Source of the DNA: a virus
Taxonomy: Duplodnaviria > Heunggongvirae > Uroviricota > Caudoviricetes
Reading direction: 5' to 3' (one strand)
Length of the DNA stretch: 64,000 bases
Virus record (IMG/VR): IMGVR_UViG_3300022468_000772
Coordinates: 86,224 to 150,223 of that record
Shown piece by piece: positions 2,702 through 60,876 of this stretch. Each line of letters begins with the position of its first letter. The stretch's first letter is position 1. Below the pieces are notes generated by a model. That model worked only from the letters and a program-made list of their open reading frames with translations, was not told where the DNA came from and made no database searches. A program made the position numbers and the translations under genes.

Positions 2702-3634
2702 ATGTTTGAAAATTTAGTTTGGGAACAACGCTATAGACCAAAGACTATTAGCGACACTATTTTGCCGCCATCCACCAAGAAAATGTTGAACGATATTATC
2801 AAGACCGGTAATATTCCCAATATGTTGTTTGCTGGCTCCGGTGGTATCGGTAAGACAACTGCAGCACGTGCTATTGCTGATGAAGTTGATGCAGAAATGC
2901 TTTACATTAACGCATCGCTTGAAGGTAATATCGATACGATCCGCACAACGCTCACACAGTTCGTGAGTACCGTTTCCATGGAAGACCGTCGCAAAATTGT
3001 TTTGCTTGATGAATCCGATTATCTCTCGAATTCCGCACAGCCTGCTTTACGTGGGTTTCTGGATGAATTCTCCAGTAATGCATCTTTCATTTTCACCTGC
3101 AACTTCCCACAGCGTATTATTGATCCGTTGATTTCTCGTTTGCAAGTTATCGACTTCAAATTTGCCAAGACCGAAAAGGTCGATGCAATGAAGCAGATGC
3201 TATCACGTGCGGAATATGTTCTCACAACCGAAGGCATCACCTATGATAAAAAGGCTGTCGCAACACTGGTTGGTAAGTATTTTCCTGATTTCCGTAAGAC
3301 TCTGGGCCAACTTCAGAAGTTCTCTACTTCCGGTGAGATTACATCCGATATCCTGAGTTTTGGGGATGGTTCTGACATTGATGAACTGATTGGCTACGTG
3401 AAGGATAAAAACTTCTCAAAATGCCGCCAGTGGGTCGCTAATAGCTCTCCAGACGCATCAACGTTCTATCGTGCTATCTACGACAAGCTGCTGCCTATTT
3501 TGGTACCTGCAAGCATTCCTCCTGTCATTTTGGCTATTGCTGAATCTCAGTATCGTGCAAGTGCTACAATCGATCCAGAAATCAACACGGTTGCTTTCCT
3601 GATCCAACTAATGTCAACAGCACAATTTAAATGA
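2702..3634 (+). CDS. 44: clamp-loader large subunit (RFC-like AAA+ ATPase)
   Basis: EQRYRPKTISD, Walker A GSGGIGKTT, LLDESD and SRLQVIDF are collinear with T4 gp44. Confidence 0.9.
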   Translation: MFENLVWEQRYRPKTISDTILPPSTKKMLNDIIKTGNIPNMLFAGSGGIGKTTAARAIADEVDAEMLYINASLEGNIDTIRTTLTQFVSTVSMEDRRKIVLLDESDYLSNSAQPALRGFLDEFSSNASFIFTCNFPQRIIDPLISRLQVIDFKFAKTEKVDAMKQMLSRAEYVLTTEGITYDKKAVATLVGKYFPDFRKTLGQLQKFSTSGEITSDILSFGDGSDIDELIGYVKDKNFSKCRQWVANSSPDASTFYRAIYDKLLPILVPASIPPVILAIAESQYRASATIDPEINTVAFLIQLMSTAQFK

Positions 3635-4083
3635 AATACACTAGATCGATATTAGGATTTTCTGGCGAGTATCGATTTCTTTCTAACTTCTACCCAATTG
3701 AGTTTGAAGTAGATGGTGAGTTGTATACATCATCAGAGCAATACTACATGGCTGCTAAATGTGCAGACCCTCTGGAACGTGCTAAGATAATGGCTTTCGA
3801 CAAACCAAGTCTAATCAAGAAATTGGGTAGCAAGGTTAAGCTGGTTGAAGGTTGGGATGATGGATTGCGCGACAAAGCGATGATGACTGCTTTGAAGGCT
3901 AAATTCTCGACCCACTTAAAAGGTAGTCTGTATATGACTACCGGTGCCTATCTAGAAGAAACCAATCATTGGAACGATACCTATTGGGGTGTCTGTGACG
4001 GTGTTGGTCAAAATAAATTAGGTCGCATGTTGATGTGGTTGCGTGACCATCATCTGTTTAAAAATTTCGAGGATTGTCCTTAA
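3631..4083 (+). CDS. NADAR / YbiA-like (DUF1768) domain protein
   Basis: FSGEYRFLSNFYPIEFEVDGELYTSSEQYYMAAK is the NADAR signature; ATGA overlap with gene 44 and 10-nt overlap with gene 62. Confidence 0.7.
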   Translation: MKYTRSILGFSGEYRFLSNFYPIEFEVDGELYTSSEQYYMAAKCADPLERAKIMAFDKPSLIKKLGSKVKLVEGWDDGLRDKAMMTALKAKFSTHLKGSLYMTTGAYLEETNHWNDTYWGVCDGVGQNKLGRMLMWLRDHHLFKNFEDCP

Positions 4084-31594: not shown

Positions 31595-32392
31595 TTATTT
31601 GCCAATATTCATTACTGACATACCATGTGGAATCAGAATTGTCTGAACTTTTCCGTTTGAAACTGCTTCCGCTACCTTCAAATTGGCTTGAGCATTCATG
31701 TAAGCAATGCTTTGTCCAGAGTTCGATGCCAGTGCAGCCATACGCTCAGATTCCAGCTTTGCCAACTTGACTTCGTTTTCCTTGATCTTCAATTCGTTTT
31801 GGCTACGCACAAATTCAGTAGCAGAGGCCAAGATTTGATCATTAGGGACAACACTTCGAACTTGAACCACGGTCAGTGTCAATGACGAGTTCAATTTCTC
31901 ACGACTCAATTGATCATTAACTTCTGCCAAGATTTCTGCTTCCATCTTTTGGCGATTGTCTGCGACTTCAAGTGACTTGTAGTTACGAACCACTTTGTAT
32001 GCGGCATTTGTTACCAACACATTCATGTAGTCATACATCAGCAAGGTGTCACCATCATCACGTGCGTGGAACGACTTGCTCTTGGTCGAATACAACTCAG
32101 CAACAGAACTTGGATTGATACTGTAAACAACAGTCATGTCGAAGTCTTTCAGTGGAGAGTTATCCGCTGTCATGGGAGTTTTGTCATTGATCTTGATGGT
32201 CAAGTCTTTGACAGGGAAAGTCAAAACATGTCCAACCAAAGTTTGATTCCAAGAACCGGGAGGTAGTTCAGCACCTTGAATCTGTTTGGATGCATCTACC
32301 CGAACGCCAACCTCGCCTGTTTCGATACGGGTACAACCAGTCATCAAGACAGAAGCTGCCATCACCAAACCAATCAAAATTTTCTTCATCAT
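31595..32392 (-). CDS. SPFH (band-7 / HflK/C / prohibitin-like) domain lipoprotein
   Basis: Signal peptide plus lipobox LMTGC; SPFH core TADNSPLKDFDMTVVYSI ... LTLTVVQVRSVVP... then a coiled-coil tail. Confidence 0.65.
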   Translation of the reverse strand: MMKKILIGLVMAASVLMTGCTRIETGEVGVRVDASKQIQGAELPPGSWNQTLVGHVLTFPVKDLTIKINDKTPMTADNSPLKDFDMTVVYSINPSSVAELYSTKSKSFHARDDGDTLLMYDYMNVLVTNAAYKVVRNYKSLEVADNRQKMEAEILAEVNDQLSREKLNSSLTLTVVQVRSVVPNDQILASATEFVRSQNELKIKENEVKLAKLESERMAALASNSGQSIAYMNAQANLKVAEAVSNGKVQTILIPHGMSVMNIGK

Positions 32393-33498: not shown

Positions 33499-33609
33499 TT
33501 AAAAATATTTTAGAACACAGGCAACAATAATTGCGATTGCTGCTATATAAACAATACCCTTTACAAGGGCTTTTGTGGCACGTGCCTCTTCTTCATCATA
33601 CCAATCCAT
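33499..33609 (-). CDS. small single-TM protein (36 aa)
   Basis: MDWYDEEEARATKALVKGIVYIAAIAIIVACVLKYF. Confidence 0.25.
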   Translation of the reverse strand: MDWYDEEEARATKALVKGIVYIAAIAIIVACVLKYF

Positions 33610-34042
33610 TTTTATCCTCCCATGGTAATACAGGGTCAGCGATCCAGCGCCGACGCATACGATCCATTGCCTCTGCAGGCACATTGTGAATAGAACCGAA
33701 AGAGCCATGCACGGAAATCACTTGCGGGATAATTCCAAGTTGCAGTGCAATTTCAAAGTAAGGGTTCAGTTCACGCTGAGTAGTGAAAGTGTTGGATACA
33801 ACAACACTCCAACCTTCTTGCAGCTTTTGCGCCACATTAGACTCACACCAGTGATGTGCAGCACCGAGCTTATTCAGGTCGAAGTTGTAGTTACCTTGCT
33901 TGTCATAGAAGTACATGTCAGCTTCATAATGACGCCATCCACCATCCATAGCAATCTTTCGGGCAATGGTACTTTTACCCGAGCCCGGCAAACCCCTCAC
34001 AATCACAAAGTAGGGTTTGGTCTTACCATCCGATGCTTGCAT
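33596..34042 (-). CDS. P-loop kinase (candidate polynucleotide 5'-kinase)
   Basis: Walker A VRGLPGSGKST directly at the N-terminus, as in the T4 Pnk kinase domain; 148 aa. Confidence 0.5.
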   Translation of the reverse strand: MQASDGKTKPYFVIVRGLPGSGKSTIARKIAMDGGWRHYEADMYFYDKQGNYNFDLNKLGAAHHWCESNVAQKLQEGWSVVVSNTFTTQRELNPYFEIALQLGIIPQVISVHGSFGSIHNVPAEAMDRMRRRWIADPVLPWEDKNGLV

Positions 34043-34238
34043 AATAAATTTCCTTCTTGTAGTTGAAAGCAGCACGAACTGCTTCTGGATATACGACATA
34101 CCACAAATTGTCCAATGCAGACATTGTGGTTCCACGAACTGTGCAACGACCTTTACTGTCTGTCTCACGCATCAACTCTTTGTGCATTGCTTCAATGATT
34201 TGTTCGCCAATTTTGATTGCGTCAGACTTAGTGATCAT
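34023..34238 (-). CDS. hypothetical protein
   Basis: 71-aa ORF. Confidence 0.35.
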   Translation of the reverse strand: MITKSDAIKIGEQIIEAMHKELMRETDSKGRCTVRGTTMSALDNLWYVVYPEAVRAAFNYKKEIYYASIGW

Positions 34239-34269
34239 TTTGAACCTCGTTTGAATTTAGATGTATGGA

Positions 34270-35232
34270 TTATACACCAATTTTGTACGGTTTCAAAATA
34301 TCTGTCTTATTTTCCACAAACAAGAAGTCATCCAAGAAATCTCGTTTCACTTCAGACAGTCGCAAATAATTAAGTGACGCATATTCACGAAACCAGCCGG
34401 ATGTCAGAGTCGTACAAATCTTCTGCAACGCTTTCCGGTACAGTTCTTGCATGTAATCACCATCAAATCCAACACCATCTTCCCGATAGCGGTTAATTCG
34501 AATACTTTTGCGGTAAGGCAAATACCCACGCTCCAAAGCAATCACCCAAGCCTCTTCCATGACACATGCATCTTTGACAGCATCAGGTGCATTCTCAAAC
34601 AGATCACCAGATGATAAAACTTCACCCTTAGCGATATGCATATACGCAGGCTTTTCGCCTATAGCAATAGCAGCATGAATTGAGTCATGATCATAGATAT
34701 ATTGTACACCATCATTCGAAAAGAATTCAGATTTACTGACATTCAGTTTGATAGGTGGTCGATTATATGTCTCTTTCTCTCGCAACTCCAGAATCTGTTT
34801 CAGCGGTTCAGAAACTCTAGACTTGTACTGCTTTGACATGTAGGTTTTCAGCTTCTCCATATTTTTATGGAAATGCATAGAATCCCGATACCGGTGTGAT
34901 TCACGGATAACATACATCAAGCTAAGTGGTGCCACATTATAAAGTTTTTCAGGATTCCCTACAGAATCCATCAAATCAAGAATTGCAGCACCAGAAGAAC
35001 CTTTGAAAGCCAGTTCAACTTCGATAATACTAATCTTGTTTGTTTCGTGTTTGACCCGAATAACAAGATGGTTGCTGCTAATCGGATATTGTTCGATGAT
35101 CTTTCCACCAAAGCCATCGAGTAATTGCTTCACAGCATTAGGCCGAACAATAAAATCCCAATCCCGATTTTCATCGATATCGAAATAGTTGTATTCAGCA
35201 CGTGATCCGATTAGAACAGCAGTATTTTTCAT
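34270..35232 (-). CDS. putative pol-beta-superfamily nucleotidyltransferase-fold protein
   Basis: LIGSRAEYNYFDIDENRDWDFIV fits hG[GS]-x7-DxD, with a later IIEVELA acidic strand; 320 aa with a helical C-terminal domain. Confidence 0.3.
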   Translation of the reverse strand: MKNTAVLIGSRAEYNYFDIDENRDWDFIVRPNAVKQLLDGFGGKIIEQYPISSNHLVIRVKHETNKISIIEVELAFKGSSGAAILDLMDSVGNPEKLYNVAPLSLMYVIRESHRYRDSMHFHKNMEKLKTYMSKQYKSRVSEPLKQILELREKETYNRPPIKLNVSKSEFFSNDGVQYIYDHDSIHAAIAIGEKPAYMHIAKGEVLSSGDLFENAPDAVKDACVMEEAWVIALERGYLPYRKSIRINRYREDGVGFDGDYMQELYRKALQKICTTLTSGWFREYASLNYLRLSEVKRDFLDDFLFVENKTDILKPYKIGV

Positions 35233-35690
35233 TAGTAACCTGACGAAGACCAGTATTGATCCGAGTTATTGTAAGAAGATGTAGTGGAGTCACCGAAGTT
35301 ATAAGAGAAGCCCACATAAACAATTTTTGGATCGACGCTGTTAACCAGACGCTCAATTTCGCTTTCCAGACTATTCAGTTGGTTGCGAATTTCAGAAAGT
35401 CGAACGTTGACTGCAGCAGCCTTTTCTTGTTCTTTATCTTCCTTGCGCGCCTTTTCTTCAGCAATACGCTGTGCTTCCTTACGGGCTTGCTCTTTGCGCT
35501 CTTCTTCCTTACGGGCTTCTTCAGCCTTATCCGCTTCCTGCTTCAGTTTAGCGCGGCGTTGTTTTTCGGCATTGGCAGTTTTCAACAAAGCAGCAATCGC
35601 TTTGTCGTTCAATTGGCTCATATCCAATTCAACATCCTGAAGAGTAGATGCGGAAGTGGTGAGTTGCGAAGTTGTTCTACGAGTTACCAT
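35232..35690 (-). CDS. K/E-rich coiled-coil protein
   Basis: EKQRRAKLKQEADKAEEARKEEERKEQARKEAQRIAEEKARKEDKEQEK. Confidence 0.4.
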   Translation of the reverse strand: MVTRRTTSQLTTSASTLQDVELDMSQLNDKAIAALLKTANAEKQRRAKLKQEADKAEEARKEEERKEQARKEAQRIAEEKARKEDKEQEKAAAVNVRLSEIRNQLNSLESEIERLVNSVDPKIVYVGFSYNFGDSTTSSYNNSDQYWSSSGY

Positions 35691-35714
35691 TTCAGTTTCC
35701 TTAAATTAAATGCA

Positions 35715-36284
35715 TCAGTCTCCGTGATGCGTTGACCTTGTTTCAAATTGGAGACACTTACGAATTTCTTCCAGAGAATATGGTTTCATATCCCCTGCAG
35801 CACGTGTATCAATACCAACATCCATACACTTTCCGGTGTTTGGCTGTTGATAGTTTGAATGCCGATGACCATGCAGATGTGTTGAACCGTATCTTGACGA
35901 ATCCCATGATTCAATCGGGAAATGACACAGGATGTAAGAAGTCTTCCCAATCTTCAATTTCTTGTAGTCTTGGATAGACGCAAACACGCCCATGAATCGC
36001 AATTCGCTTTCATCATCATGGTTACCGAGAATCAGATGATGGTTGCAATGATCAGAAATCCGGCGCAGCAGCTTTTTGGTTTCATCATATTTGCCAAAGG
36101 TAATGTCGCCCAGATTCCACAGGTCGCCACCCTCTGGAACGGTGTTAATCACATTATAAATGATCAGTTCATTCATTTCTTCGAGGGTCGAACCCTTACG
36201 CGAGAATGGGCAGAATTGCTGAATTCTTTTATGGAAAAGATGCCAATCCGAAGTGAAGTATGGTTGTTGTTCAATTTTATTCAT
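35715..36284 (-). CDS. calcineurin-like metallophosphoesterase
   Basis: TSDWHLFH (DxH), LGDITF (GDxx), LGNHDD (GNHD/E), HGHRH; start at the M of MNKIEQQ. Confidence 0.6.
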   Translation of the reverse strand: MNKIEQQPYFTSDWHLFHKRIQQFCPFSRKGSTLEEMNELIIYNVINTVPEGGDLWNLGDITFGKYDETKKLLRRISDHCNHHLILGNHDDESELRFMGVFASIQDYKKLKIGKTSYILCHFPIESWDSSRYGSTHLHGHRHSNYQQPNTGKCMDVGIDTRAAGDMKPYSLEEIRKCLQFETRSTHHGD

Positions 36285-36291
36285 ATGTTGA

Positions 36292-36597
36292 TTATACACC
36301 AAAAATCTTGTTGTATTCACTTTTTGAAATTTTTTTGTAGTAGCCATGTTCAGAAAGTGATACATATTCCCCATTTAAAATTTTCTCTCTTAGGGGTTTA
36401 AACAATTCCTCAACAGTGAATTCCTCATATGCGCGATATTGTACCATATCATGAGCATCCTGTAATGTTATCTCATTTTTTGCCATACATTCTCGCGTTA
36501 AAGCACCAATAAATGATTGAACAATTAGTAATGTAGTTTGATCTAAACGTGATCCAACAACCTTTTTGTCAAATTCTTCGCGGAGTCTTGACTCCAT
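36292..36597 (-). CDS. hypothetical protein
   Basis: 101-aa ORF. Confidence 0.4.
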   Translation of the reverse strand: MESRLREEFDKKVVGSRLDQTTLLIVQSFIGALTRECMAKNEITLQDAHDMVQYRAYEEFTVEELFKPLREKILNGEYVSLSEHGYYKKISKSEYNKIFGV

Positions 36598-36598
36598 T

Positions 36599-36916
36599 TC
36601 AAGACTCCAAAACTTTAATCATGTGATCAACCCAAGCGTGGCGGTATGCTTGACGCTTTTCATACGTGCTAAGGTCGATATCTTTATTAAGATATAACCA
36701 TCCAGTAATAAACATTTCACCTTTAAGTTGTTTTCGAATCCAACCTTTAACCAATGCCTTTGATATTACATCACAATCCGTGTCATCAACTGCCCAACAT
36801 ACATATATTTGCTTGTCACTTTTTATGTCGAAGAAATTTCCAGATAATAGTTTTTTCTTCGCTTCCTTCAAGCATTGAGCCATAGCCAAATGTTGTTCAC
36901 GTGTTAAATTTGCCAT
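36599..36916 (-). CDS. hypothetical protein
   Basis: 105-aa ORF. Confidence 0.4.
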   Translation of the reverse strand: MANLTREQHLAMAQCLKEAKKKLLSGNFFDIKSDKQIYVCWAVDDTDCDVISKALVKGWIRKQLKGEMFITGWLYLNKDIDLSTYEKRQAYRHAWVDHMIKVLES

Positions 36917-36923
36917 AATAGCC

Positions 36924-37859
36924 TCACAGAGTAGAGTTCAACAGATTGCGCATGTATTCCAGACGGTCTTGCTCAGGCATTACCTTAAACAATTCATCAT
37001 TACGCAGTTTTTCAATCAGAGGATAAAATTCTTCCTCAACACGAGCCATGTTCAGTGCCATGATATCAGCCTTACGAGCCACCATCTTTTGGAACAGGTA
37101 AGCCTTAGACTTGATCTTGATCATTTCACCTTTAGTGTAGTTGAAGATCACATAACCTTCATGTGGTGCCTCACGTGCCATTTTCACAGCATCTACGAAC
37201 CGCATATCAGGAATAGGGTCATACCACTCAGACACTTCAGCATACTTTGCAATTTCTTGAAAAGCAGAATCACCATAGGTCAGCATCAATCGTGCATTGT
37301 CGAACGAATAGAATTCGGTACCTTGGTAAATAATTGAGAGTAGATAAGCACCATACTTTTCAGGAATGATGTGTGGATCGTCAGGATGGCAAATCTCAAA
37401 CATATAGGTAGTTTCAGGGCACAGGGTTGATGGATCAATATCCTTCAGATACGTTTCGGCATATCCAACAAAATCAGAATCCAGAGAGCCAGTAGTACCA
37501 ATGAGCAGCTTACCGTTGTAAACACTCAAGGATGCCATGAATCCATTCACCTTGCGAGAAACACCCACAAATGTCCGTGGATGCCAGTCTACACCAGCAC
37601 CGTTTTCTTGGTAGTTGTAGATTTTCTTGAATGGTAATTGAACCACATTGAAATCAGCATCCACAACCAAACCACGGCAGTGACGCAGCATTTCGTTTTG
37701 ATCCCACAAATTGTTGAAAAATACACGACGAGTGTACTTCAGTACAGACAGACCTTGATAGCGCTTAGACTCTTTACGAGTCACCAGACGAGGATTGTTC
37801 AGAACGAATTCTTTGAGATTTTCACGGTCAATACCGTAGTTGTGCGAAGTGAGTTCCAT
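36924..37859 (-). CDS. rnlA: RNA ligase 1 (T4 Rnl1 / gp63-like)
   Basis: LRHCRGLVVD aligns with T4 LECRGIMFE; LPFKKIYNY with RPMEKFFNL; motif I SRKVNGFMASLSVYNGKLLIGTTGS with [24 protein letters not shown]. Confidence 0.7.
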   Translation of the reverse strand: MELTSHNYGIDRENLKEFVLNNPRLVTRKESKRYQGLSVLKYTRRVFFNNLWDQNEMLRHCRGLVVDADFNVVQLPFKKIYNYQENGAGVDWHPRTFVGVSRKVNGFMASLSVYNGKLLIGTTGSLDSDFVGYAETYLKDIDPSTLCPETTYMFEICHPDDPHIIPEKYGAYLLSIIYQGTEFYSFDNARLMLTYGDSAFQEIAKYAEVSEWYDPIPDMRFVDAVKMAREAPHEGYVIFNYTKGEMIKIKSKAYLFQKMVARKADIMALNMARVEEEFYPLIEKLRNDELFKVMPEQDRLEYMRNLLNSTL

Positions 37860-37864
37860 GATTT

Positions 37865-37900
37865 ACCTTTCGAGTTTCGATAAACGAATTATAACACATG
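37865..37900 (-). promoter_or_regulatory. early promoter plus leader motif (copy)
   Basis: rc: CATGTGTTATAATTCGTTTATCGAAACTCGAAAGG. Confidence 0.5.
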
Positions 37901-37903
37901 TTT

Positions 37904-38113
37904 CTAGCGTTTTACAACGGGGACACAAAATTCCTCAGTTTGCCTCTTTGCTAAAAACTGAGACTGTCCAGCAGGAATTTTTGTTTCGCATTCTTGCTTT
38001 GTTGGGTATATCTCTACATAAGTCGGTACACAAAATCGTGTACATGCAACAAAAATAAGTGCCCAACCCATATCAGAACAGAAACTTGTCTGGTGAACCG
38101 TTTTTGTAATCAT
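37904..38113 (-). CDS. small Cys-rich hypothetical protein
   Basis: 69-aa ORF. Confidence 0.3.
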   Translation of the reverse strand: MITKTVHQTSFCSDMGWALIFVACTRFCVPTYVEIYPTKQECETKIPAGQSQFLAKRQTEEFCVPVVKR

Positions 38114-38657
38114 TCCAATTTGTGGGAGTTACTTGAATGGAATGCTTACGTTTATACCAAACGTTGTCGAGTTCGCGCCATGCAGGAACATCCAGTTGAT
38201 AGAAAACACGTTCACCGGCAAATACCTTGTCTTCAACGATTTGCATCCGTGGCTTCTCCACAAGACCAAGCAATTCAATCACCACTTCCTTCGGAATATT
38301 GATTTTGACATCACCGAATTTATTGGTAATCTGAAGGTTTCCGCCATCAAGAGCTACAGTTGCTTTAGACACTCCATAAAAATCCGACTCAACTTCAACT
38401 TCAAATGTCTTGACTGTAGCATCGTCATAAACAATTTCCGGTTCTGGTTCGACATAATCTTCGAACATCACAGAATTGTAGTAACCATTAATACCTTGGA
38501 AGTATACATCGGTACTGCTACTATGAACTACCGTGTGATCCACTGTGTAAACTTGACCTTTTACAAATCCGTTTGCACGTGCATAGTCTTTTTCACACTT
38601 GTATCCACCTTCATCAAGGTAGACAACCTTGTCACCACTTTTTGCCCAGATGTTCAT
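38073..38657 (-). CDS. hypothetical protein
   Basis: 194-aa ORF. Confidence 0.45.
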   Translation of the reverse strand: MNIWAKSGDKVVYLDEGGYKCEKDYARANGFVKGQVYTVDHTVVHSSSTDVYFQGINGYYNSVMFEDYVEPEPEIVYDDATVKTFEVEVESDFYGVSKATVALDGGNLQITNKFGDVKINIPKEVVIELLGLVEKPRMQIVEDKVFAGERVFYQLDVPAWRELDNVWYKRKHSIQVTPTNWNDYKNGSPDKFLF

Positions 38658-38798
38658 ATTTTTTACTCCATTTTGTTAATTTCAGAAACAGACCTTCTAC
38701 CAAGACGATAGCGAGAATCCAGAAAGCCATAAAGACCGACACAAAGCCGACAACAATTATGCCAACGATAAAATAAACCAGATCAAACAATGTTCGCA

Positions 38799-39059
38799 TC
38801 ATACCACACGTTTACTGAATGGTTTTGAATTTGAAGTTTTGAATAATTCGAGTCGAGTTTTTGCCTCTTCCAAAGTTGCGAAAGATGCGAATTCATGTAT
38901 ATAGGATTTTCCGTACCACCAATAATTATCGTTCTGAGACATCTTGGAAGTCAGATAACTCCACCCAATATCGTTCAATTTTCGAATAACAAATTCACCA
39001 CTCCGCAACTGTGCGATATGTGGCTTGAATGGGTTGTAAAAGAATTTAAATAATTTCAT
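38799..39059 (-). CDS. hypothetical protein
   Basis: 86-aa ORF, Trp/Tyr-rich. Confidence 0.4.
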   Translation of the reverse strand: MKLFKFFYNPFKPHIAQLRSGEFVIRKLNDIGWSYLTSKMSQNDNYWWYGKSYIHEFASFATLEEAKTRLELFKTSNSKPFSKRVV

Positions 39060-39060
39060 C

Positions 39061-39306
39061 TTAACCGCTCTTTAAAAGTTGTTCATGATAGGCTTCGCGC
39101 AAAAGTTTTTGACCCTTCTTAGTCACTCTCCATGTCTTTTCGCCAATTAGCCCCAATTGTACCATAATCATTGTGATAGTGTGACCACAATGATATCCGA
39201 CAGCACGTTTAAACACTGAAGCATTCAAAAGTTCGCGTTTATCAGCACCACCAAAGTTTGTGTTGCGGAAAGCTAATTCCAATTCTTCGTCAGAGACTAT
39301 AGACAT
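39061..39306 (-). CDS. hypothetical protein
   Basis: 81-aa ORF. Confidence 0.4.
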   Translation of the reverse strand: MSIVSDEELELAFRNTNFGGADKRELLNASVFKRAVGYHCGHTITMIMVQLGLIGEKTWRVTKKGQKLLREAYHEQLLKSG

Positions 39307-39742
39307 AAATTTTTAAATCCTGTTTTTGCCACTTATCAAACATTGGTTCGATCTTACTCCAATCACACCCACCAAGACCGCACCCGATTTTAGGAATGAC
39401 AATTGTATTGAACATCTTCATGACGAATGCGAGATTACTTTCAATAGCTTCATAAGAAGCATACTGCTTTCCATCTTTTCCGTAGAATTCCTGAGTGATT
39501 GCAGACGCGAGATAGATGTCTGTTTTATAGTCTTTTGATAAAGAGCAGTCTCCGAGTCCAAGACCTGAAGCAAGATCGTCCACGTAATGTTTGAATGCTT
39601 TTGGATATCTTTCTTTAAACTCTTTAGCAACACCGCTACCCATGACACCTTGTTTGTTGCAACCATGCATGAATACTTTTCTTCCGTGGTCTTTGGAAAA
39701 ATCATGATCAAACATGTTACCTTTACGATATTCAATCTGCAT
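39290..39742 (-). CDS. macro-domain (ADP-ribose binding/processing) protein
   Basis: VFMHGCNKQGVMGSGVAKEFKERYP (compare VNAAN...GGGVAGAI) and IPKIGCGLGGCDW (compare IPxIGTGIxG); 150 aa. Confidence 0.6.
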   Translation of the reverse strand: MQIEYRKGNMFDHDFSKDHGRKVFMHGCNKQGVMGSGVAKEFKERYPKAFKHYVDDLASGLGLGDCSLSKDYKTDIYLASAITQEFYGKDGKQYASYEAIESNLAFVMKMFNTIVIPKIGCGLGGCDWSKIEPMFDKWQKQDLKIYVYSL

Positions 39743-40118
39743 AATCTTCGTCTGTGTATTCTTGAATAGCTCGGTTAATTTCAGCCTGCAAATTGCGCAG
39801 TCGTTTCATTACCGATTCGTTTACCAAATCTTCAAGTGGTTTATCCATTTTCTTGAATACGGTATCATTGACCATGCTACGAACTGTCTGTTCGCTAACC
39901 TTTGTCAACTCTTCCCGCACGGCTGCTTCGATACCATCGACACCCGCAAAATGATGTGCCATTGTGTAATTTTTTGCCTGTAAGTTGGCTTCATTCTTTA
40001 CAGCGTCTTGGAAAGCTGTGAATGTCTCATTCTGCGCAATAGCAGTAATCATCTTATGCAACAGACGATTTGCGATATCTTCTTTATCCTTATCGGACAA
40101 TTCAATTTGAATGTTCAT
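39732..40118 (-). CDS. hypothetical protein
   Basis: 128 aa from the M of MNIQIEL; RBS AAGAGG. Confidence 0.4.
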   Translation of the reverse strand: MNIQIELSDKDKEDIANRLLHKMITAIAQNETFTAFQDAVKNEANLQAKNYTMAHHFAGVDGIEAAVREELTKVSEQTVRSMVNDTVFKKMDKPLEDLVNESVMKRLRNLQAEINRAIQEYTDEDYAD

Positions 40119-40335
40119 TTTTATACCTCTTAAACAATACACCACCTGAACAATTTTCTACAAAAACTCCAATTGCTACAAATTCGCGTACTACCGGCAC
40201 CAAAGCCGTTAAAACCATTGCAAAAAAATCATATACATTAATATCACTTTTTTTTCGTTGAAAATGTACAAAAATAGCCGCCATAACTGGAATCCCAACC
40301 AACCAATAAAGAAAAAACATGATGCTTCCTTTCAA
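40102..40335 (-). CDS. small membrane protein
   Basis: Two hydrophobic helices, FFLYWLVGIPVMAAIFVHF and AMVLTALVPVV. Confidence 0.35.
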   Translation of the reverse strand: MKGSIMFFLYWLVGIPVMAAIFVHFQRKKSDINVYDFFAMVLTALVPVVREFVAIGVFVENCSGGVLFKRYKNEHSN

Positions 40336-40613
40336 AAAGAGTTTACAAATTCACGGAGTCGTTGCATTGCTTCTACTCCGCGCTGCATGACAGGATCAAA
40401 TTCCATTTTCTTCTTGTGAACTAATCGGATAATTGCTTCAGCGGAAACTTGTTGATGTTCTGTTAGGTCGTGATTGATACCAAAGTACATCAGAGCAACG
40501 GCTTTTGCACCGTTTTGAACTTGCTCATGTGTTGTTCCTGGTTCATTTGCCATTTTGAAGAATTCTCCGCTCTGCTTGTAGAATTCGTCGTATGTTACGC
40601 TGAATGTGGTCAT
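40332..40613 (-). CDS. hypothetical protein
   Basis: 93-aa ORF. Confidence 0.4.
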   Translation of the reverse strand: MTTFSVTYDEFYKQSGEFFKMANEPGTTHEQVQNGAKAVALMYFGINHDLTEHQQVSAEAIIRLVHKKKMEFDPVMQRGVEAMQRLREFVNSF

Positions 40614-40622
40614 GGATAATCC

Positions 40623-40862
40623 TTAGACGTTGATCTGAATATCGAAGCCATCAATTGTAGCACACAAACCAGTGGCGCATGCAGTAATGTCATCGCTATT
40701 GCGCATACGTTCAAGTTCAGCGAGGGCTTTCTGCACAGCAAGGTTAAAGAATACCGCACTACCTACACCGTCACGAATTTGCGCAACTGTAGTGTAGAAC
40801 GATACTTTGCCCGTGATGATTCGAACTTGGCGAGTCTTGGAGAATTTAAATGGTTTTGTCAT
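40623..40862 (-). CDS. hypothetical protein
   Basis: 79-aa ORF downstream of a promoter copy. Confidence 0.4.
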   Translation of the reverse strand: MTKPFKFSKTRQVRIITGKVSFYTTVAQIRDGVGSAVFFNLAVQKALAELERMRNSDDITACATGLCATIDGFDIQINV

Positions 40863-40871
40863 GTGTTAGTA

Positions 40872-40907
40872 CCTCTTTTGTGTTTCGATGGGAGAATTAT
40901 AACACAG
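40872..40907 (-). promoter_or_regulatory. early promoter plus leader motif (copy)
   Basis: rc: CTGTGTTATAATTCTCCCATCGAAACACAAAAGAGG. Confidence 0.5.
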
Positions 40908-40909
40908 TT

Positions 40910-41578
40910 TTAAAACATGTTGTAATATTCTCCAATATTTTTATTTGCCTTTTCTTCCCACATTTCGCGACCAGCCGATGTACGATAGATGTATTTGCGT
41001 TTGTGCCCCACAAACATCTGTAGAAAATTTGCCGACTTCTTATAGTTTTCTTTGGTCAACTCAGCGCCATTTTCCAAAATGATGTTTTCTTGATTGGTGA
41101 GAAAAACGCTCCACTCAGCAGCCAAAGAAGAAAGATCGGCATCGAGTAAAGCATTGAATTCATCAGGGACACTGATATCCATATCCCAATCACGTTGAAC
41201 ATGAACTTCGAGTGAAGTTTTTTCGATGTACTCTTGTGCGCAGTTTACCACATTCTTTTCGTATTCGGAAAAGGGTGATTGTTTGTTCAGGTCACGTGCA
41301 AAAATTCCAAGAAGAGTAGCAGAACACCGTTCATTAGCATCACTACCTGCCATTGGAAAGTAAACCAGATCATGATATGCAGCCGCCAGCAAAACGGTAG
41401 GTGATCTGTATCCGATAGACACGAGTGCATCAATCACATTTTGTGCATGTGTCGCGTTGTGGTATGGTGTTGCATGGCGCAGACGTTGCTCATGATATGC
41501 ATTGCCAAACGAATTGAACAATGTCAGGATGTTCGGTGCGTCTTTGAAAAATTGGTTTGTTTTTGTCATGATGGTCAT
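40910..41578 (-). CDS. HD-domain metal-dependent phosphohydrolase
   Basis: YHNATHAQNV ... LLAAAYHDLVY (H...HD signature). Confidence 0.5.
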   Translation of the reverse strand: MTIMTKTNQFFKDAPNILTLFNSFGNAYHEQRLRHATPYHNATHAQNVIDALVSIGYRSPTVLLAAAYHDLVYFPMAGSDANERCSATLLGIFARDLNKQSPFSEYEKNVVNCAQEYIEKTSLEVHVQRDWDMDISVPDEFNALLDADLSSLAAEWSVFLTNQENIILENGAELTKENYKKSANFLQMFVGHKRKYIYRTSAGREMWEEKANKNIGEYYNMF

Positions 41579-41581
41579 GGT

Positions 41582-41791
41582 TTATACCAGTTTAGAGAGG
41601 TAGTGTTTTTCGACCCATTCGCGCTGGCTTTGAACCATATCACGATCAAGTGGATCACCTTTGCGACCCATGGAAGACTTTTTATTTGTCTTCAGGTTGT
41701 AGTACCAGAAAGTCTGCTTGGTTTTGGTAAATCCGTAAACAGTCTCAATGACTTCGATTACGTCTGTATCAGAAAACCGGATTTGCAGCAT
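41582..41791 (-). CDS. hypothetical protein
   Basis: 69-aa ORF downstream of a promoter copy. Confidence 0.4.
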   Translation of the reverse strand: MLQIRFSDTDVIEVIETVYGFTKTKQTFWYYNLKTNKKSSMGRKGDPLDRDMVQSQREWVEKHYLSKLV

Positions 41792-41800
41792 ATTTGGATA

Positions 41801-41836
41801 CCTCTTTTGTGTTTCGTTAAACGAATTATACCACAG
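41801..41836 (-). promoter_or_regulatory. early promoter plus leader motif (copy)
   Basis: rc: CTGTGGTATAATTCGTTTAACGAAACACAAAAGAGG. Confidence 0.5.
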
Positions 41837-42225
41837 ATTCTTTTGGTACCAACAAAATAAAAGTTGTACTCATGCTGCAGGCCCGTAGAGGTCTTCGTAC
41901 TTTCTCTCTAACCACTCCACATCTTCAATCGTTGTGGGGTTGGCTGCTTCGATAAATTCTTGCAGTGTCGGCTGTGTCGGGAAAATATTCTTCAAAATAG
42001 CAAGTAAGTTCATTTTGATTTCTTTCTGTTGTTAATAAACAATGGCAAAACCTTTACCTCTGTTCTTTTTCTCTTCATATTCATCATCATCCATACTAAT
42101 GTCTTTCCTTTTGTTTTTCGTGAAGGAGAAGCGTCTTTAAAAATTCCAGTTCACTAATCTGAACTGGAATTTCCGAAACCTTTTGACCTTCAATCAAAGA
42201 TTGAAGATATTCCAGTGCAGACATT

Positions 42226-43275
42226 TTAGTACCCCCGCTTTAGCAAATAACTGTTGGAAACTGACTTAAAGGTAAAGCGATCACCCTTGTTTGACTTAAA
42301 TACAACACCTTCGCGCATCAGATTCTTCAGATCACCGATTCGGCTAGGCTCAGAAGCTGCATAGTTCAGGAAATCATCAGAAGTCATTCCACGGATATCA
42401 AAATCCGTTTCCAATACTGGCACGGTCTTGATTTGCAAAAAGTCAGCCAATGCCTGCATTTCTTTTGGTGTGTAGTATTTCTGTGCATCAATGTCATAAA
42501 CATCGAACAGACGGTATTCCCACGCACCTAGATTGTAGTAGTTGCCCTGGACAGCAGGCCCGATTGTTTCGAACTGCAGTGCAATATTAGGACAGAAACT
42601 AGCCAGCTTCTCTTTTAGATTATTAGCGAAAGCAGGCTGCGTGAAAGGTGAATTCATGATCACATCTTGATCTTCCAGCTTCAGGCGCAGGTTGCGAGAG
42701 CAGATACCAAAATCACCGTCACGTTGGAAAACAGTCACAGAGGAACCTTCAGCCTTTTCTTCGATAGTGAAAGTGGCATCGGGGTTCTTTTCCAGATAGT
42801 TTTCCACGGAACGCATGAAGTTCTGAATACGTTCTTGGTCGGTCTTTGGAATGAAGCTAGGGAATGAACCCATGGCATTCACAGGTACACGCTCTGGCTC
42901 TGGTTCCCACTTGATGATACCAAGCAGTTCCGTAACATCTAGACCTTCAACGAATTGTGTTGGATCATTGAATTCTGCAGGAATAGGTAGCAGCAAACCT
43001 TGACTCAGTGCGCCTTTCAGCTTGATGGTCTTCAGACGCTCACCGTCGATACCCTTGTAGTTCTTGGGGTATTTGTCGGCTTTGGTCAAGAATGGTGCAA
43101 TAGTGTTTGGCATCCATGAGTCACACTCACAGTAGACAACCAAGTCACCAACAGCGTACTTGTCCTTCTGGTCAATCACGCGCCACCCACCGATCCGATA
43201 CTGCACAATGCGGTCAGCACCTTCGATGGCAATTACTTCTTCAATTCGTGCAATATATGCAAGTTTACGTGTCAT
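42226..43275 (-). CDS. ATP-dependent RNA ligase, Rnl5-like (N-terminal OB-like domain plus adenylyltransferase)
   Basis: N-terminus MTRKLAYIARIEEVIAIEGADRIVQYRIGGWRVIDQKDKYAVGDLVVY parallels NgrRnl MGVRKLATIR...PIAGAEAIECCHVDGWTCVIKKGEFKQGD; motif I EEKAEGSS (KxxG). Confidence 0.5.
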   Translation of the reverse strand: MTRKLAYIARIEEVIAIEGADRIVQYRIGGWRVIDQKDKYAVGDLVVYCECDSWMPNTIAPFLTKADKYPKNYKGIDGERLKTIKLKGALSQGLLLPIPAEFNDPTQFVEGLDVTELLGIIKWEPEPERVPVNAMGSFPSFIPKTDQERIQNFMRSVENYLEKNPDATFTIEEKAEGSSVTVFQRDGDFGICSRNLRLKLEDQDVIMNSPFTQPAFANNLKEKLASFCPNIALQFETIGPAVQGNYYNLGAWEYRLFDVYDIDAQKYYTPKEMQALADFLQIKTVPVLETDFDIRGMTSDDFLNYAASEPSRIGDLKNLMREGVVFKSNKGDRFTFKSVSNSYLLKRGY

Positions 43276-51730: not shown

Positions 51731-52384
51731 TTATTGTGTTGCTTGCCAGCGACGGAAGTTTTCTTCGGCCTTCTTATTGTACTCGACAAAAGCGCCAGTG
51801 TATAGATTTTCCCATGTTTGGAAACTAACTTTGATACCCTCTTCTACACTCCAGATGTCGGCAAACATTGTTTCATCGACAGCAGGTGTGTACACAAATG
51901 TGGTGCAATAAAAATCTCGTCCATCACCACCAACCACAATCTCGCTGAAGATGGGTACGAACAATTCAGAACGCAGGTTCAGACCAGTTTCTTCAGCAGT
52001 CTCACGCACGATGGCTTGATGGATAGTCTCACCAGCGTCTTGTTTACCGCCCGGCAGCGCAAGAATATCCGTGTTTCGGCGTGTTGTTGTCAACACCTTA
52101 CCGGATGTGCTATGAATGATCACGGCTGCAGAGTTAGCGAGTGTACGCTTACTTGTATCTACATAAGTTTGTTGAGGGATAGCCGGTGTCTCAGATTTAG
52201 CCAAGACAAAGTAGACTTCAATATTGTCTTCGCGCTGAAAATCTGCGCATGCGATACCTTCACAAAAGTTTTTTCTTTCACCAGTAGTATCAAAATGACA
52301 GATACTACATGGATTTGGTGTGCTTCCAACGACAATTGGGATTACTTTAACTCCACCCCAAGTTTCAACAGCTAAATTTTTCAT
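51731..52384 (-). CDS. Nudix hydrolase with N-terminal Cys cluster
   Basis: Nudix box GGKQDAGETIHQAIVRETAEETGL (Gx5Ex7REUxEExGU); N-terminal CSICH...CEGIAC. Confidence 0.75.
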   Translation of the reverse strand: MKNLAVETWGGVKVIPIVVGSTPNPCSICHFDTTGERKNFCEGIACADFQREDNIEVYFVLAKSETPAIPQQTYVDTSKRTLANSAAVIIHSTSGKVLTTTRRNTDILALPGGKQDAGETIHQAIVRETAEETGLNLRSELFVPIFSEIVVGGDGRDFYCTTFVYTPAVDETMFADIWSVEEGIKVSFQTWENLYTGAFVEYNKKAEENFRRWQATQ

Positions 52385-56589: not shown

Positions 56590-57573
56590 TTAAGCTGCCA
56601 GAGCCAGCATGTCTTCCAGCACTTCGGTCTTCAGATCATCACCCTTACCGAAAGAGCTATCCATGAACTTGCGACCAGCATCCACCTTGCGAACACCGTA
56701 GTGGTCTTGGAATTCAGTCACAGCATTCAGCACGTTGTATGCAGTGTTGGGAGCGAATTCTGCACCACGACCACCCTTAAACAGGGACATCAAAGATGCC
56801 ACAGTCTTCACAGCACCCCAAGTTTGGTCTTCGGCTGTCTTGTTCTTGTCGTAGAACTTGTTCACGAAGTATGCGTTAGCATCCATGTCGCTGATTTCGA
56901 CAGTAGCCAGCTTCTTCATGTTGTCAGCAAACTTGCCCCAACCGTCAGAAATCAAGCCCATGTCCAGCTTAACTTGGGTAGCATCCCAAGTGGAGCGGTG
57001 AGTCACTTTCACCAGATTCTTGCTATTTTCACCGATAGCAGCAGTCAGAGTGTTTTGGCACACTGTGCGGGTAGAAACAACCTTGGCGATGGTAGCCAGA
57101 GTACCGTCGATAGAGGTAGCCAACAAAAGTTGACCATTGATGGTATCACCGGAAACAGTCTCGAAACCGTTGCCCAGATCAGCAGTTGCCCAGAAACGGC
57201 GACCACCCATGATGGTACCAGCAGCAGACAGCTTCAAACCATGGATGCCAACCAGATCAGAGAAGAAGTCGATCACTTGAGCAGGCTGAACAATCTTGTA
57301 GTCAGAACCAACCACAGACATTGCTTCGGAACTGTCGGAACGGAACAACACTTTCTTGTCATCCATGGTTTTGGTTTCCAGACCGGCTTGGTACATGACT
57401 TGGCTGGAGAAAACTTCCCAATCCATACCAGCTTCAGTCTTCCACTGATCCAGAGTCATGTCGTCAGACATTGCTTGGCCCAACGAATGCCAAATTTCTT
57501 TGCGACCTTCTTCGCCGCCTGCGAATGCGAACTCTACTTTGCCGTCTTTACGAATAGTCAAATTGTGGGACAT
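56590..57573 (-). CDS. DUF932-family (phage/plasmid-associated) protein
   Basis: N-terminus MSHNLTIRKDGKVEFAFAGGEEGRKEIWHSLGQAM resembles the M-x-H-N-L...PWHGLG start of DUF932/TIGR03299 proteins; about 330 aa as for the family. Confidence 0.4.
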   Translation of the reverse strand: MSHNLTIRKDGKVEFAFAGGEEGRKEIWHSLGQAMSDDMTLDQWKTEAGMDWEVFSSQVMYQAGLETKTMDDKKVLFRSDSSEAMSVVGSDYKIVQPAQVIDFFSDLVGIHGLKLSAAGTIMGGRRFWATADLGNGFETVSGDTINGQLLLATSIDGTLATIAKVVSTRTVCQNTLTAAIGENSKNLVKVTHRSTWDATQVKLDMGLISDGWGKFADNMKKLATVEISDMDANAYFVNKFYDKNKTAEDQTWGAVKTVASLMSLFKGGRGAEFAPNTAYNVLNAVTEFQDHYGVRKVDAGRKFMDSSFGKGDDLKTEVLEDMLALAA

Positions 57574-59302: not shown

Positions 59303-59642
59303 ATTTTTCTTGATTTATCTTATCTGAGATAAATTTTAAAAAATCGTTGTCATTCAGTTTGTCATTTTTCCTTTGAATTTCGTACAACTCAGTGCCTGTA
59401 AAACCATATTTTATCAATTTCATAAGGATACGCTGGATCGTGCCATTTGAAGATTGAATGTTTAACGTCATGCTTCCAGTGCGATCTAGATAATCCAATT
59501 CATTTTCATCCAACAAGCAACCTAGTGCGCAGTAGCATAATTGATCTTTTTCATAGTTGAACCGGCGATAAAAATATGATACTCTGTTCCCACTCAGGGT
59601 AAGTTCCAAAATTTTCTTGAGTGCTTCGATTTTAGTTGACAT
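59292..59642 (-). CDS. hypothetical protein
   Basis: 116-aa ORF. Confidence 0.4.
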   Translation of the reverse strand: MSTKIEALKKILELTLSGNRVSYFYRRFNYEKDQLCYCALGCLLDENELDYLDRTGSMTLNIQSSNGTIQRILMKLIKYGFTGTELYEIQRKNDKLNDNDFLKFISDKINQEKSML

Positions 59643-60684
59643 TGTTAATTACCTCTTTCATTTGCTTCAAACGTTCTTCGATGGTTCCGGTAAGAATTGT
59701 GTATTCTAACCCAAAATCCTGCAAAACATCACAGTAATAATTATGAACACTCTGACGGAAGTTTTCATCACGGCGTGTTCCATCCTGATCAAATGGGATA
59801 TCTGGAACACAGATAAAGATATGCGCGTAACGATGCATGTCTTGAAAGTTGTATGACCTTAGAAAACGGTCTACACGACCAAATATAACCTCAGAATAAA
59901 CGGAAGTAGTAACCGAACATGTGTCACAGATCACAAAGTCTTTACTCGTGTCATAGGCTCGTTGAGCAGCAATGTATTCCTGTTGGCGTTGAACCTCTGC
60001 AATTTGGCGCATATTTTTGAACACGAGTTTACCATCGGTTTGTTCCCACAATTCGCGACCATATTCAAAGACAGGCACAATATCAAATTTCTTAGAAGCA
60101 CGTTGCACGATGGTTGTCTTTCCAGAAGATTCGCCACCGAGGATCAGAATGCGCGGAATAAAGGTAGCAAACACTTCTGGATGCACCCAATCTTCGATAT
60201 CACGGTAGTTCTTTTCAATCATTTCACGCAGCATTGTACCGGATACTTTGTTCACTTCGCGGTCTTCATCAACCATAGAGAACTGGCATTCTGGAGAAAT
60301 TGTTCCAGCCAACATATAACCATATGACTCAGAAGCAAAAACAACATCAACACCATCACCATCAGGGAAATATTCTCTGATCTTGTCACGGCAGAATTCA
60401 CGATGGATGAATGCCGGTTCGTCATCAAGTGGAATTGAATCAATTTCTGGATTCAATACAACTGCTTCCAGACGCCCAGAATCAATTTCATTCTTGTAAA
60501 TTGTGTCGAGCCAGTATTGGCGTGTCGTGCTGTCACAGCCGAAGAATTCTTCAGATGTGTAGCTCAAAACAAACACTTGTTCGCAGCGTTCCAGTGCAGT
60601 TTCGATCACATATTGATGCCCTTTGTGCAGTGGTGCAAATTTACCAACCACAAAGCCACGTTTGAATTCTTTATTTGTTGTCAT
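59632..60684 (-). CDS. nadR: NadR-like bifunctional NMN adenylyltransferase / ribosylnicotinamide kinase
   Basis: N-terminal (H/T)xGH nucleotidyltransferase motif VGKFAPLHKGHQ; C-terminal Walker A GGESSGKTT as in NadR RNK domains; 350 aa, no HTH. Confidence 0.65.
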   Translation of the reverse strand: MTTNKEFKRGFVVGKFAPLHKGHQYVIETALERCEQVFVLSYTSEEFFGCDSTTRQYWLDTIYKNEIDSGRLEAVVLNPEIDSIPLDDEPAFIHREFCRDKIREYFPDGDGVDVVFASESYGYMLAGTISPECQFSMVDEDREVNKVSGTMLREMIEKNYRDIEDWVHPEVFATFIPRILILGGESSGKTTIVQRASKKFDIVPVFEYGRELWEQTDGKLVFKNMRQIAEVQRQQEYIAAQRAYDTSKDFVICDTCSVTTSVYSEVIFGRVDRFLRSYNFQDMHRYAHIFICVPDIPFDQDGTRRDENFRQSVHNYYCDVLQDFGLEYTILTGTIEERLKQMKEVINNVN

Positions 60685-60687
60685 ATT

Positions 60688-60870
60688 TTAATCACCACGT
60701 TTTAACAGGTTTCGAATCTCATAGATGCGTTGCTCTATTCCTCTGCGAACCATATCAGCTTCAGCACTTCCACCGATAGCATCATTCTGGCGTTCTAGGA
60801 ATTTCAGAGCGCGTTGCATGGCTACTACATGTGTTTTGGTTATTCCGAGTTTCGGTTCAGCAGAGTTCAT
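60688..60870 (-). CDS. hypothetical protein
   Basis: 60-aa ORF downstream of a promoter copy. Confidence 0.3.
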   Translation of the reverse strand: MNSAEPKLGITKTHVVAMQRALKFLERQNDAIGGSAEADMVRRGIEQRIYEIRNLLKRGD

Positions 60871-60876
60871 CTGGTA

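Follow-up and report, generated by a model that had tools for sequence, protein, structure and literature searches.

A free-standing Q-type macro-domain protein in a T4-like phage, a possible AdfM-type DNA de-ADP-ribosylase

A stand-alone macro-domain protein is encoded in the 64,000-nt stretch of phage DNA analysed here (the window), and this protein belongs to the ALC1-like/TARG1 class of macro domains. The interpretation that we rank first, above a role of the Adpp type, is that of an AdfM-type enzyme de-ADP-ribosylating DNA, to which we give slightly less than an even chance. The ORF is far beyond chance expectation, and its product is a real, well-folded macro-domain protein. It is a member of a very common phage family, for homologues of which an anti-DarT role has already been published in 2025-2026.

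The macro-domain gene and its phage

The gene under study is the following:

39290..39742, minus strand: stand-alone macro-domain protein (ATG start, 150 aa; Q-type, PHROG 335)

An earlier note on this DNA, made from the sequence alone, had described an ORF of 150 aa at 39290-39742 with two macro-domain motifs. Both were borne out, with GCNKQGVMGSGVAKEF found exactly as quoted at residues 27-42, and the strand can now be given as minus. The macro ORF is overlapped by its 5' neighbour by 11 nt and by its 3' neighbour by 17 nt, which places the gene within a compact run of genes read in the same direction. The profile search that the earlier note had proposed matched positions 2-115 of the 118-position PF01661 (Macro) profile at E=6.6e-11, and the score of 42.6 bits exceeds the curated gathering score of 22. 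The match to the PHROG 335 profile ('phosphatase') had E=6.6e-36. The macro domain spans the entire 150-aa protein, so 'stand-alone' is the right description. Fold prediction, which the earlier note had set as the check on its own claim, gave a macro domain: the AlphaFold2 model (pLDDT 94.2, pTM 0.89) predicts a three-layer alpha/beta macro fold for the product of 39290..39742, and the best fold matches in a structure search with this model were all macro domains.

The nearest solved neighbours are BT1257, DarG, Poa1p, TARG1 and SCO6735. The closest neighbours by both structure and sequence are TARG1, DarG, Poa1p and SCO6735, and not the MacroD, PARG or viral nsP3 types. Where the earlier note had left the choice between MacroD, DarG-like and other clades, the protein can thus be placed in the ALC1-like/TARG1 class, but it is not DarG-like in mechanism, having Gln84 and no DarT-binding domain. 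By sequence, it falls into the Q-type branch of PHROG 335, an assemblage made up of Tk.4/AdfM, Adpp and SCO6735-like proteins.

The window contains T4-like phage genes (gp32, gp43-type polymerase, RegA, and clamp-loader). Among cultured phages, this phage has no close relative: no isolate has a DNA polymerase sharing more than 41% identity with its own, and megablast of positions 38000-41000 against 50,697 phage records gave no match. The macro gene is located in a run of ~40 kb consisting mostly of small minus-strand genes, including gp32, DNA ligase, RNA ligases, and dCMP deaminase. The earlier note had called this an early-gene array. The minus-strand run is there; however, sigma-70-like promoter matches were not enriched (18 observed vs 16.0 +/- 4.2 in shuffles), and since the promoter/terminator scan does not exceed the shuffled expectation, early expression is something that we infer. 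The best promoter match and the NADAR gene that the earlier note had invoked, which does exist, are given below:

41825..41852, minus strand: best sigma-70-like promoter match (10/12, extended -10 TG), upstream of the macro block, a weak candidate
3631..4083, plus strand: NADAR-domain protein of 150 aa (PF08719, E=4e-19; phrog_1017, E=1.5e-38)

The NADAR protein shares 39% identity with NADARs of T5-like phages, of which AdfN(Bas32) was shown to be active (PMC11825919), and it is a candidate AdfN-like anti-DarT1 factor.

The identical macro protein is on record in 10 metagenomic contigs, the longest of 198 kb, and 841 homologues were found. An exhaustive HMMER scan of 1.84 billion cluster representatives yielded 6,874 matches with E<=1e-3, of which 1,199 had E<=1e-10; almost all of these relatives are about 150 aa long. 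According to tblastn, the family is present in 1,425 of the 50,697 phage records, and about 41% of myoviruses carry macro domains (PMC9503650), so a stand-alone phage macro domain is ordinary. In the PHROG scan, T4 Tk.4 (E=1.3e-65), Gary Adpp, PhiKZ AdfM, and the macro protein of Vibrio phage RYC were all assigned to PHROG 335, as was the query. PHROG membership therefore does not discriminate function.

Active site, subclass, and phylogeny

Three segments of the protein form or adjoin the putative ADP-ribose pocket:

39626..39667, minus strand: loop 1 of the ADP-ribose pocket, residues 26-39, HGCNKQGVMGSGVA (family and reference alignments)
39461..39499, minus strand: residues 82-94, ITQEFYGKDGKQY, with Gln84 and a lengthened 'mobile loop' bearing Lys89 and Lys92 (MAFFT)
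39359..39397, minus strand: loop 2 (diphosphate-binding), residues 116-128, IPKIGCGLGGCDW (alignments)

Reference macros came from annotated phage records (PhiKZ gp104, T4 and PP01 Tk.4, and others), PDB alignments, and Table S1/S4 of the aRES preprint, and conservation was read from a family alignment (A1) of 52 sequences. Both Gly-rich binding loops and the conserved Asn are present in the query and invariant across the family. In loop 1, the invariant residues are H26, G27, N29, Q31, M34, S36, G37, and A39; T83, G88, P117, G120, G122, and W128 are also invariant, and Q84 and E85 are conserved in >=90% of the family. N29 aligns with DarG N22 and PhiKZ AdfM N23, and H26 with Poa1p H23 and SCO6735 H24. 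The loop-1 motif GVMGxG (GVMGSG in the query) matches DarG and PhiKZ AdfM exactly, while Tk.4 and Gary Adpp differ there. In the MAFFT alignment, Gln84 aligns with the catalytic Lys (DarG K80, TARG1 K84) and Gly125 with the catalytic Asp125 of TARG1, and the loop after Gln84 (ITQ84EFYGK89DGK92QY) is ~4 residues longer than that of DarG. The residue numbering of the TARG1 sequence used agrees with PMC9411070.

The alignments split the class in two. K-type proteins (DarG, PhiKZ gp104, and TARG1) have a catalytic Lys in PTK/ITK followed by a short loop; in Q-type proteins, Gln replaces this Lys and the loop is longer. The query belongs with the latter, as do T4 Tk.4 (YTQFQPG), Gary Adpp (YGQYHW), SCO6735 (IGQHGMK), and all NARP1-associated macros in the reference alignment. 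With Q84, H26, N29, and a long loop carrying K89 and K92, the protein fits the SCO6735-like (Q-type) subclass in every sequence feature checked. The isoelectric points of the reference macros range from 4.8 to 9.9, with no pattern by function.

Two more specific identities were tried and rejected. The query is not a DarG2: the catalytic Lys (K80 of Taq DarG, in the FPTK motif) is replaced by Gln84, the 150-aa protein has no C-terminal DarT-binding domain, and NCBIfam NF048014 gave 56.6 bits vs a cut-off of 250, matching profile positions 1-146 of 338. A DarG-like mechanism falls on the same three points. In addition, no DarT-like neighbour was detected by Pfam and PHROG scans within +/-6 kb of the macro gene. 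The Lys84-Asp125 dyad of TARG1/OARD1 is likewise absent, Gln84 and Gly125 standing in its place.

The query scored as follows against the reference proteins:

RYC NARP1 macro: 74.7 bits
PAK_P1 NARP1 macro: 66.2 bits
Tk.4 (PP01): 55.1 bits (31% identity, blastp E=5.6e-14)
SCO6735: 51.6 bits
PhiKZ AdfM: 48.1 bits
Gary Adpp: 43.5 bits

These pairwise scores do not decide between AdfM and Adpp. In a bootstrapped NJ tree of 48 sequences, the query formed a clade with proteins of Pseudomonas phage Astolliot and Escherichia phage ELP-22 and grouped with SCO6735 and RYC-type macros, while T4 Tk.4 and Gary Adpp fell into one loose group. AdfM-type and Adpp-type proteins intermixed and every deep node had <30% bootstrap, so the substrate is not readable from sequence. 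The AdfM and Adpp functions are thus inseparable by sequence, active-site residues or phylogeny, and annotation as 'anti-DarTG2' or as 'ADPR-1P phosphatase' by homology only is consequently unsafe. For PHROG 335, to which most genomes give the label 'phosphatase', two different functions have by now been published, AdfM and Adpp. Conceivably, the Q-type macros are bifunctional and neutralise aRES-derived ADPR-1''-P as well as DarT2 adducts by hydrolysis at C1''.

Proposed function and alternatives

As an AdfM-type enzyme, the protein is predicted to be a free-standing, catalytically competent hydrolase of the ALC1-like/TARG1 class. Loop 1 (H26-G-C-N29...G-V-M-G-S-G) and loop 2 (I-G-C-G-L-G-G) would form the cleft for the ADP-ribose adduct, which would be cleaved by hydrolysis at C1'' of the distal ribose. 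Because there is no catalytic lysine, a SCO6735-type mechanism is proposed, in which Gln84 would position the substrate and the water network. Produced during infection as an orphan 'antitoxin-like' counter-defence enzyme, the protein may strip the thymidine ADP-ribose left by a host DarT2-type toxin off single-stranded phage DNA, allowing replication to proceed; the NADAR protein (3631-4083) would do likewise for the guanine adducts of DarT1, as in phage T4. That the substrate is thymidine-ADPr on DNA, and which defence system is countered, we infer.

According to previous studies, thymidine-ADPr is hydrolysed by DarG, TARG1, SCO6735, and TARG1-like panel members, not by MacroD-type proteins, and among the macro classes, cleavage of thymidine-linked ADP-ribose has been demonstrated for the ALC1-like/TARG1 class alone (PMC9411070; PMC12879935). 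In T4, tk.4 was the single significant match of HIDEN-SEQ transposon sequencing on a DarTG2 host and was named adfM, and its clean deletion sensitises T4 on the DarTG2 host; the evidence for the anti-DarTG2 role of Tk.4 is genetic only (10.1101/2025.11.20.689424). T4 30.3, a NADAR protein, is adfN and acts against DarTG1 (10.1101/2025.11.20.689424; PMC11825919). We place the AdfM type first because no NARP1 genes were seen among the scanned ORFs of the window or near the macro gene in nine sampled relatives, a NADAR gene is present, the phage is T4-like, loop 1 reads GVMGSG, and the class has dT-ADPr activity; the context favours it slightly. The best-scoring reference, a NARP1-operon macro of Vibrio phage RYC (33% identity), counts against it. 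The anti-DarT idea of the earlier note survives in its class and its logic, with T4 Tk.4 as a precedent, but a DarG-like mechanism finds no support, and the Adpp alternative had been missed. Its suggestion that the macro and NADAR proteins together cover thymine and guanine has an exact published precedent in T4 (adfM + adfN). If the AdfM reading is true, a deeply divergent T4-like phage carries the two-enzyme kit of T4, which would speak for DNA ADP-ribosylation by DarT toxins as a widespread and old pressure on large myoviruses.

A role of the Adpp type is possible but clearly less probable. The protein would then dephosphorylate soluble ADP-ribose-1''-phosphate made by RES-domain NAD+ phosphorylases (e.g. 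aRES) to ADP-ribose, which would detoxify ADPR-1''-P or feed NAD+ reconstitution. In Vibrio phage Gary, the Poa1p-like macro Adpp (KNV71_gp137), whose gene is flanked by Adps and Namat, turns ADPR-1''-P into ADPR, and with its help NARP1 defeats the NAD+ phosphorylase aRES; ~15% of NARP1 operons carry an Adpp-type macro gene (10.64898/2026.01.28.702374). This protein, for which both the ADPR-1P phosphatase activity and the role against aRES have been demonstrated, is itself a Q-type macro of PHROG 335, and the query has a Poa1p-like macro domain, as Adpp (NARP1-AP) does. The best reference match of the query, in Vibrio phage RYC, is encoded between Namat and Adps, and its top PDB sequence match is the ADPR-1''-P phosphatase Poa1p; however, S30 and F152 of Poa1p are not kept (V33 and G124 in the query), and identity to Gary Adpp is only 29%, with a score below those of Tk.4 and SCO6735. 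The phage does invest in NAD+ restoration through a NadR-like and PnuC pair of NARP3 architecture (59632-61475), but NARP3 uses imported nicotinamide riboside, not ADPR. The operon context also counts against this role: what defines Adpp is that it is encoded within the Adps-Adpp-Namat operon, since only Adps can use the ADPR that it produces, and neither Adps nor Namat was found among the scanned ORFs of the window (64 kb of the ~198-kb genome, with ~134 kb outside) or within +/-8-10 kb of the macro gene in the contexts of nine relatives (41-64% identity).

The neighbourhood of the macro gene contains several genes related to RNA end processing:

33596..34099, minus strand: P-loop kinase (AAA_33, polynucleotide-kinase-like; PF13671, E=1.4e-10; phrog_2071 and phrog_505, 'polynucleotide kinase')
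34270-35232: DUF7277/7275 protein
35715..36374, minus strand: calcineurin-like metallophosphoesterase, a candidate RNA end-healing enzyme (PF00149; phrog_547, E=1.5e-48)
36924..37859, minus strand: T4 gp63/Rnl1-like RNA ligase (phrog_562, E=3.7e-43)
40910..41578, minus strand: HD-type phosphohydrolase (phrog_19425, E=2.5e-11)
42226..43275, minus strand: RNA ligase with N-terminal PHA02142 OB fold (PF09414, E=1.4e-21; PF21189, E=3.2e-21; phrog_968)

The DUF7275/7277 neighbour had no PDB sequence match, and its single-sequence AlphaFold2 model reached a pLDDT of 41. The overlapping 81-aa downstream ORF was considered as a family-wide partner and discarded, being conserved only in the 64%-identity relative. 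In the closest cultured homologues (Astolliot and ELP-22), the neighbourhoods are almost all annotated as 'hypothetical protein'.

We regard it as unlikely that the protein is an RNA-repair accessory working with the flanking RNA ligases, kinase, and phosphoesterases instead of in DNA or NAD+ counter-defence, but the link is retained in view of the two RNA ligase genes on either side of the macro gene and of one relative with a fused HAD_SAK domain. In one variant, the protein would clear ADPR-1''-P/ADPr>p arising from NAD+-dependent, possibly KptA-independent, 2'-phosphate removal; in another, it would take ADP-ribose placed by host toxins or RNA-targeting ADP-ribosyltransferases off RNA ends or bases, so that the ligases could reseal them. 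The macro subfamily concerned reads HGCNAQGVMGSG...ITQEFYG. An island of ~10 kb around the gene holds the kinase, metallophosphoesterase, Rnl1-like ligase, HD phosphohydrolase, and OB-fold RNA ligase listed above, and relatives with 64%, 45%, and 43% protein identity still have a ligase gene in the neighbourhood of the macro gene. The pairing of OB-fold RNA ligase and macro gene recurs in relatives L003, L006-8, and L024; the HD phosphohydrolase has a syntenic ortholog in L003, and RNA_lig_T4_1 takes the position of the Rnl1-like ligase in L006-8. Every ligase-adjacent case, however, is a T4-like phage in which gp32 and dCMP deaminase are also close by, so that the arrangement may have been inherited rather than kept by a functional link, and five of the nine sampled contexts have no RNA ligase nearby. 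Ten longer relatives were scanned for fused domains, and one was informative, a fusion of HAD_SAK_2 ('Swiss Army Knife RNA repair' phosphatase) with Macro, 46% identical to the query macro and located on a 2-kb contig; it is the only such fusion among the 150 best representatives. The recurrent RNA-ligase adjacency and the HAD_SAK fusion point to RNA-related work, against the AdfM reading. An RNA-repair role of phage macros was proposed earlier on comparative grounds, some of them being thought to clear KptA-made ADPR-1''-P during RNA repair (PMC7824862; PMC9503650). That pathway needs KptA/Tpt1 or a sirtuin plus a 2H enzyme (PMC9503650), none of which was found among the scanned ORFs of the 64-kb window. 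It is very unlikely that the macro protein partners the ADP-ribosyltransferase (ART) of the phage itself (63195-63926, ADPrib_exo_Tox family; PF03496, E=2.9e-16), reversing or limiting its protein or RNA ADP-ribosylation as a self-immunity or timing device. This ART is encoded within the same window, SCO6735 and TARG1 de-modify proteins too (PMC9411070), and phage ART-macro and sirtuin-macro pairs have been described (PMC9503650), but it lies 23 kb from the macro gene in a separate operon, no ART adjoins the macro gene in any sampled context, and T4 has three ARTs, yet its tk.4 phenotype appears only on DarTG2 (10.1101/2025.11.20.689424). Least probable of all is a non-catalytic binder (sponge) of ADP-ribose-derived immune signals such as those of Thoeris, although macro domains do bind ADPr derivatives, one of them serving as the sensor of type II Thoeris ThsA. 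The Migulavirinae preprint deals with the ThsA macro domain, not with phage macros.

Comparison with known macro-domain systems

PhiKZ gp104 (chimallivirus AdfM; Cell Rep 2026) is a DarG2-like macro of the K-type and clears DNA of DarT2 adducts (PMC13309987). The query resembles it in its orphan anti-defence logic and shares with it and with DarG2 the ALC1-like macro fold, the GVMGxG loop 1, and the conserved Asn. Unlike the query, PhiKZ gp104 and DarG2 keep the catalytic Lys (K78/K80) in a FPTK motif followed by a short loop, and DarG2 also has a C-terminal DarT-binding domain and adjoins DarT. AdfB of ICP1 was dropped as a comparator, since it is a 77-aa DarT binder and not a macro domain.

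Adpp and Poa1p share with the activity proposed for the query a chemistry at ribose C1''. The query is like Gary Adpp in being a Q-type macro of PHROG 335 and like Poa1p in keeping His23 (H26), whereas yeast Poa1p has Ser at the position of Gln84.

Among bacterial proteins, SCO6735 of Streptomyces coelicolor (PDB 5E3B) matches the query in Gln84, the long Lys-bearing loop, H26, and N29, although its Lys34 corresponds to Ser36 and its Val25 to Gly27. Although both TARG1 catalytic residues are missing from SCO6735, it is an efficient thymidine-ADPr hydrolase, in which Gln85 is indispensable and the longer loop, with Lys89 and Lys94, contributes to activity on DNA (PMC9411070). SCO6735 and BT1257 (PDB 2FG1/2AFC), each about 30% identical to the query, are bacterial housekeeping or damage-inducible proteins and not phage genes.

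T4 Tk.4 differs from the query in its short loop after Gln, in 'NCFHTMGSG' in loop 1, and in its neighbourhood, which consists of vs/regB/tk instead of RNA ligases. Like Tk.4, the query is a free-standing macro of ~150 aa from a T4-like phage, assigned to PHROG 335 and encoded in a genome that also carries a NADAR gene, and the two proteins have in common the HGCN...TQ...IGxG signature, in which Gln stands where DarG has Lys.

NADAR and other ADP-ribose and nucleotide enzymes

Besides the macro-domain protein, the window encodes a NADAR protein, whose gene is flanked by two clamp-loader genes, and three further enzymes:

2702-3634, gp44-like clamp-loader gene
3631-4083 (+), NADAR protein
4083-4487, gp62-like clamp-loader gene
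51731-52384 (-), Nudix hydrolase (PF00293, E=1.5e-11)
62391-62903 (-), HD_4 (SpoT/RelA-type) hydrolase (E=1e-13)
63195-63926 (-), ADP-ribosyltransferase, exoenzyme family, 243 aa (PF03496, E=2.9e-16)

The NADAR protein shares 39% identity with its NADAR counterparts in T5-like phages and 47% with a NADAR of an uncultured 595-kb phage, and it is a candidate AdfN-type factor against DarT1 (AdfN is the T4 30.3 NADAR, which acts against DarTG1). The ADP-ribosyltransferase, for which no PHROG match was obtained, may be an Alt/Mod-like enzyme for host takeover. The Nudix and HD_4 proteins are predicted to be additional processors of nucleotides or ADPr derivatives; like the macro gene, both of their genes are located in the presumed early region.

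RNA-repair-like island and macro-domain relatives

Six genes were named in an RNA-repair-like island:

33596-43275 (-), P-loop kinase, DUF7277/7275 protein, metallophosphoesterase, Rnl1-like ligase, HD phosphohydrolase and OB-fold RNA ligase

The DUF7277/7275 protein carries an N-terminal GS...DxD pattern reminiscent of Pol-beta nucleotidyltransferases; a PDB sequence search with it returned no match, and AF2 single-sequence prediction gave no usable model. In a 306-aa metagenomic protein (P0251, L021:565-1485, on a 2-kb contig), HAD_SAK_2 is fused to a macro domain that is 46% identical to the query. HAD_SAK_2 is a phosphatase domain of the "Swiss Army Knife RNA repair" type.

L022 (P0091 context) encodes a macro relative in which Arg replaces the conserved Gln (NAITREFYG). 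Its gene adjoins a Sequestin-domain gene, with a NADAR gene 1.8 kb downstream, and together these possibly form a small anti-defence cluster.

Accessory genes and the NadR-like and PnuC-like pair

Other genes of the window are as follows:

225-300 (+), tRNA-Met (CAT) gene
1579-2061 (+), YqeY/GatB-like protein (PF09424, E=8.8e-10)
5892-6836 (-), ORF of about 315 aa
9549-10499 (+), ORF of about 315 aa
28119-30146 (-), VWA-domain protein, 675 aa, beside gp32 and syntenic in relatives
31595-32392 (-), SPFH/Band-7 protein with a signal-like N-terminus
56590-57573 (-), DUF932 protein
59632-60684 (-), NadR-like NMN adenylyltransferase/ribosylnicotinamide kinase (AAA_28, E=1.6e-27; phrog_3462, E=2.1e-41)
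60894-61475 (-), PnuC-like transporter (PF04973, E=1.2e-49)

The first two, near the window start, are accessory functions tied to translation. The two ORFs of about 315 aa, on opposite strands, bracket the DNA polymerase gene and look like homing endonucleases by position and sequence. The VWA-domain, SPFH/Band-7 and DUF932 genes are unusual accessory genes for this phage. Finally, the NadR-like gene adjoins the PnuC-like gene. A two-gene NAD+-restoring counter-defence, NARP3, was recently reported (PMC13464706), and the NadR-like and PnuC-like pair has the same two-gene architecture.
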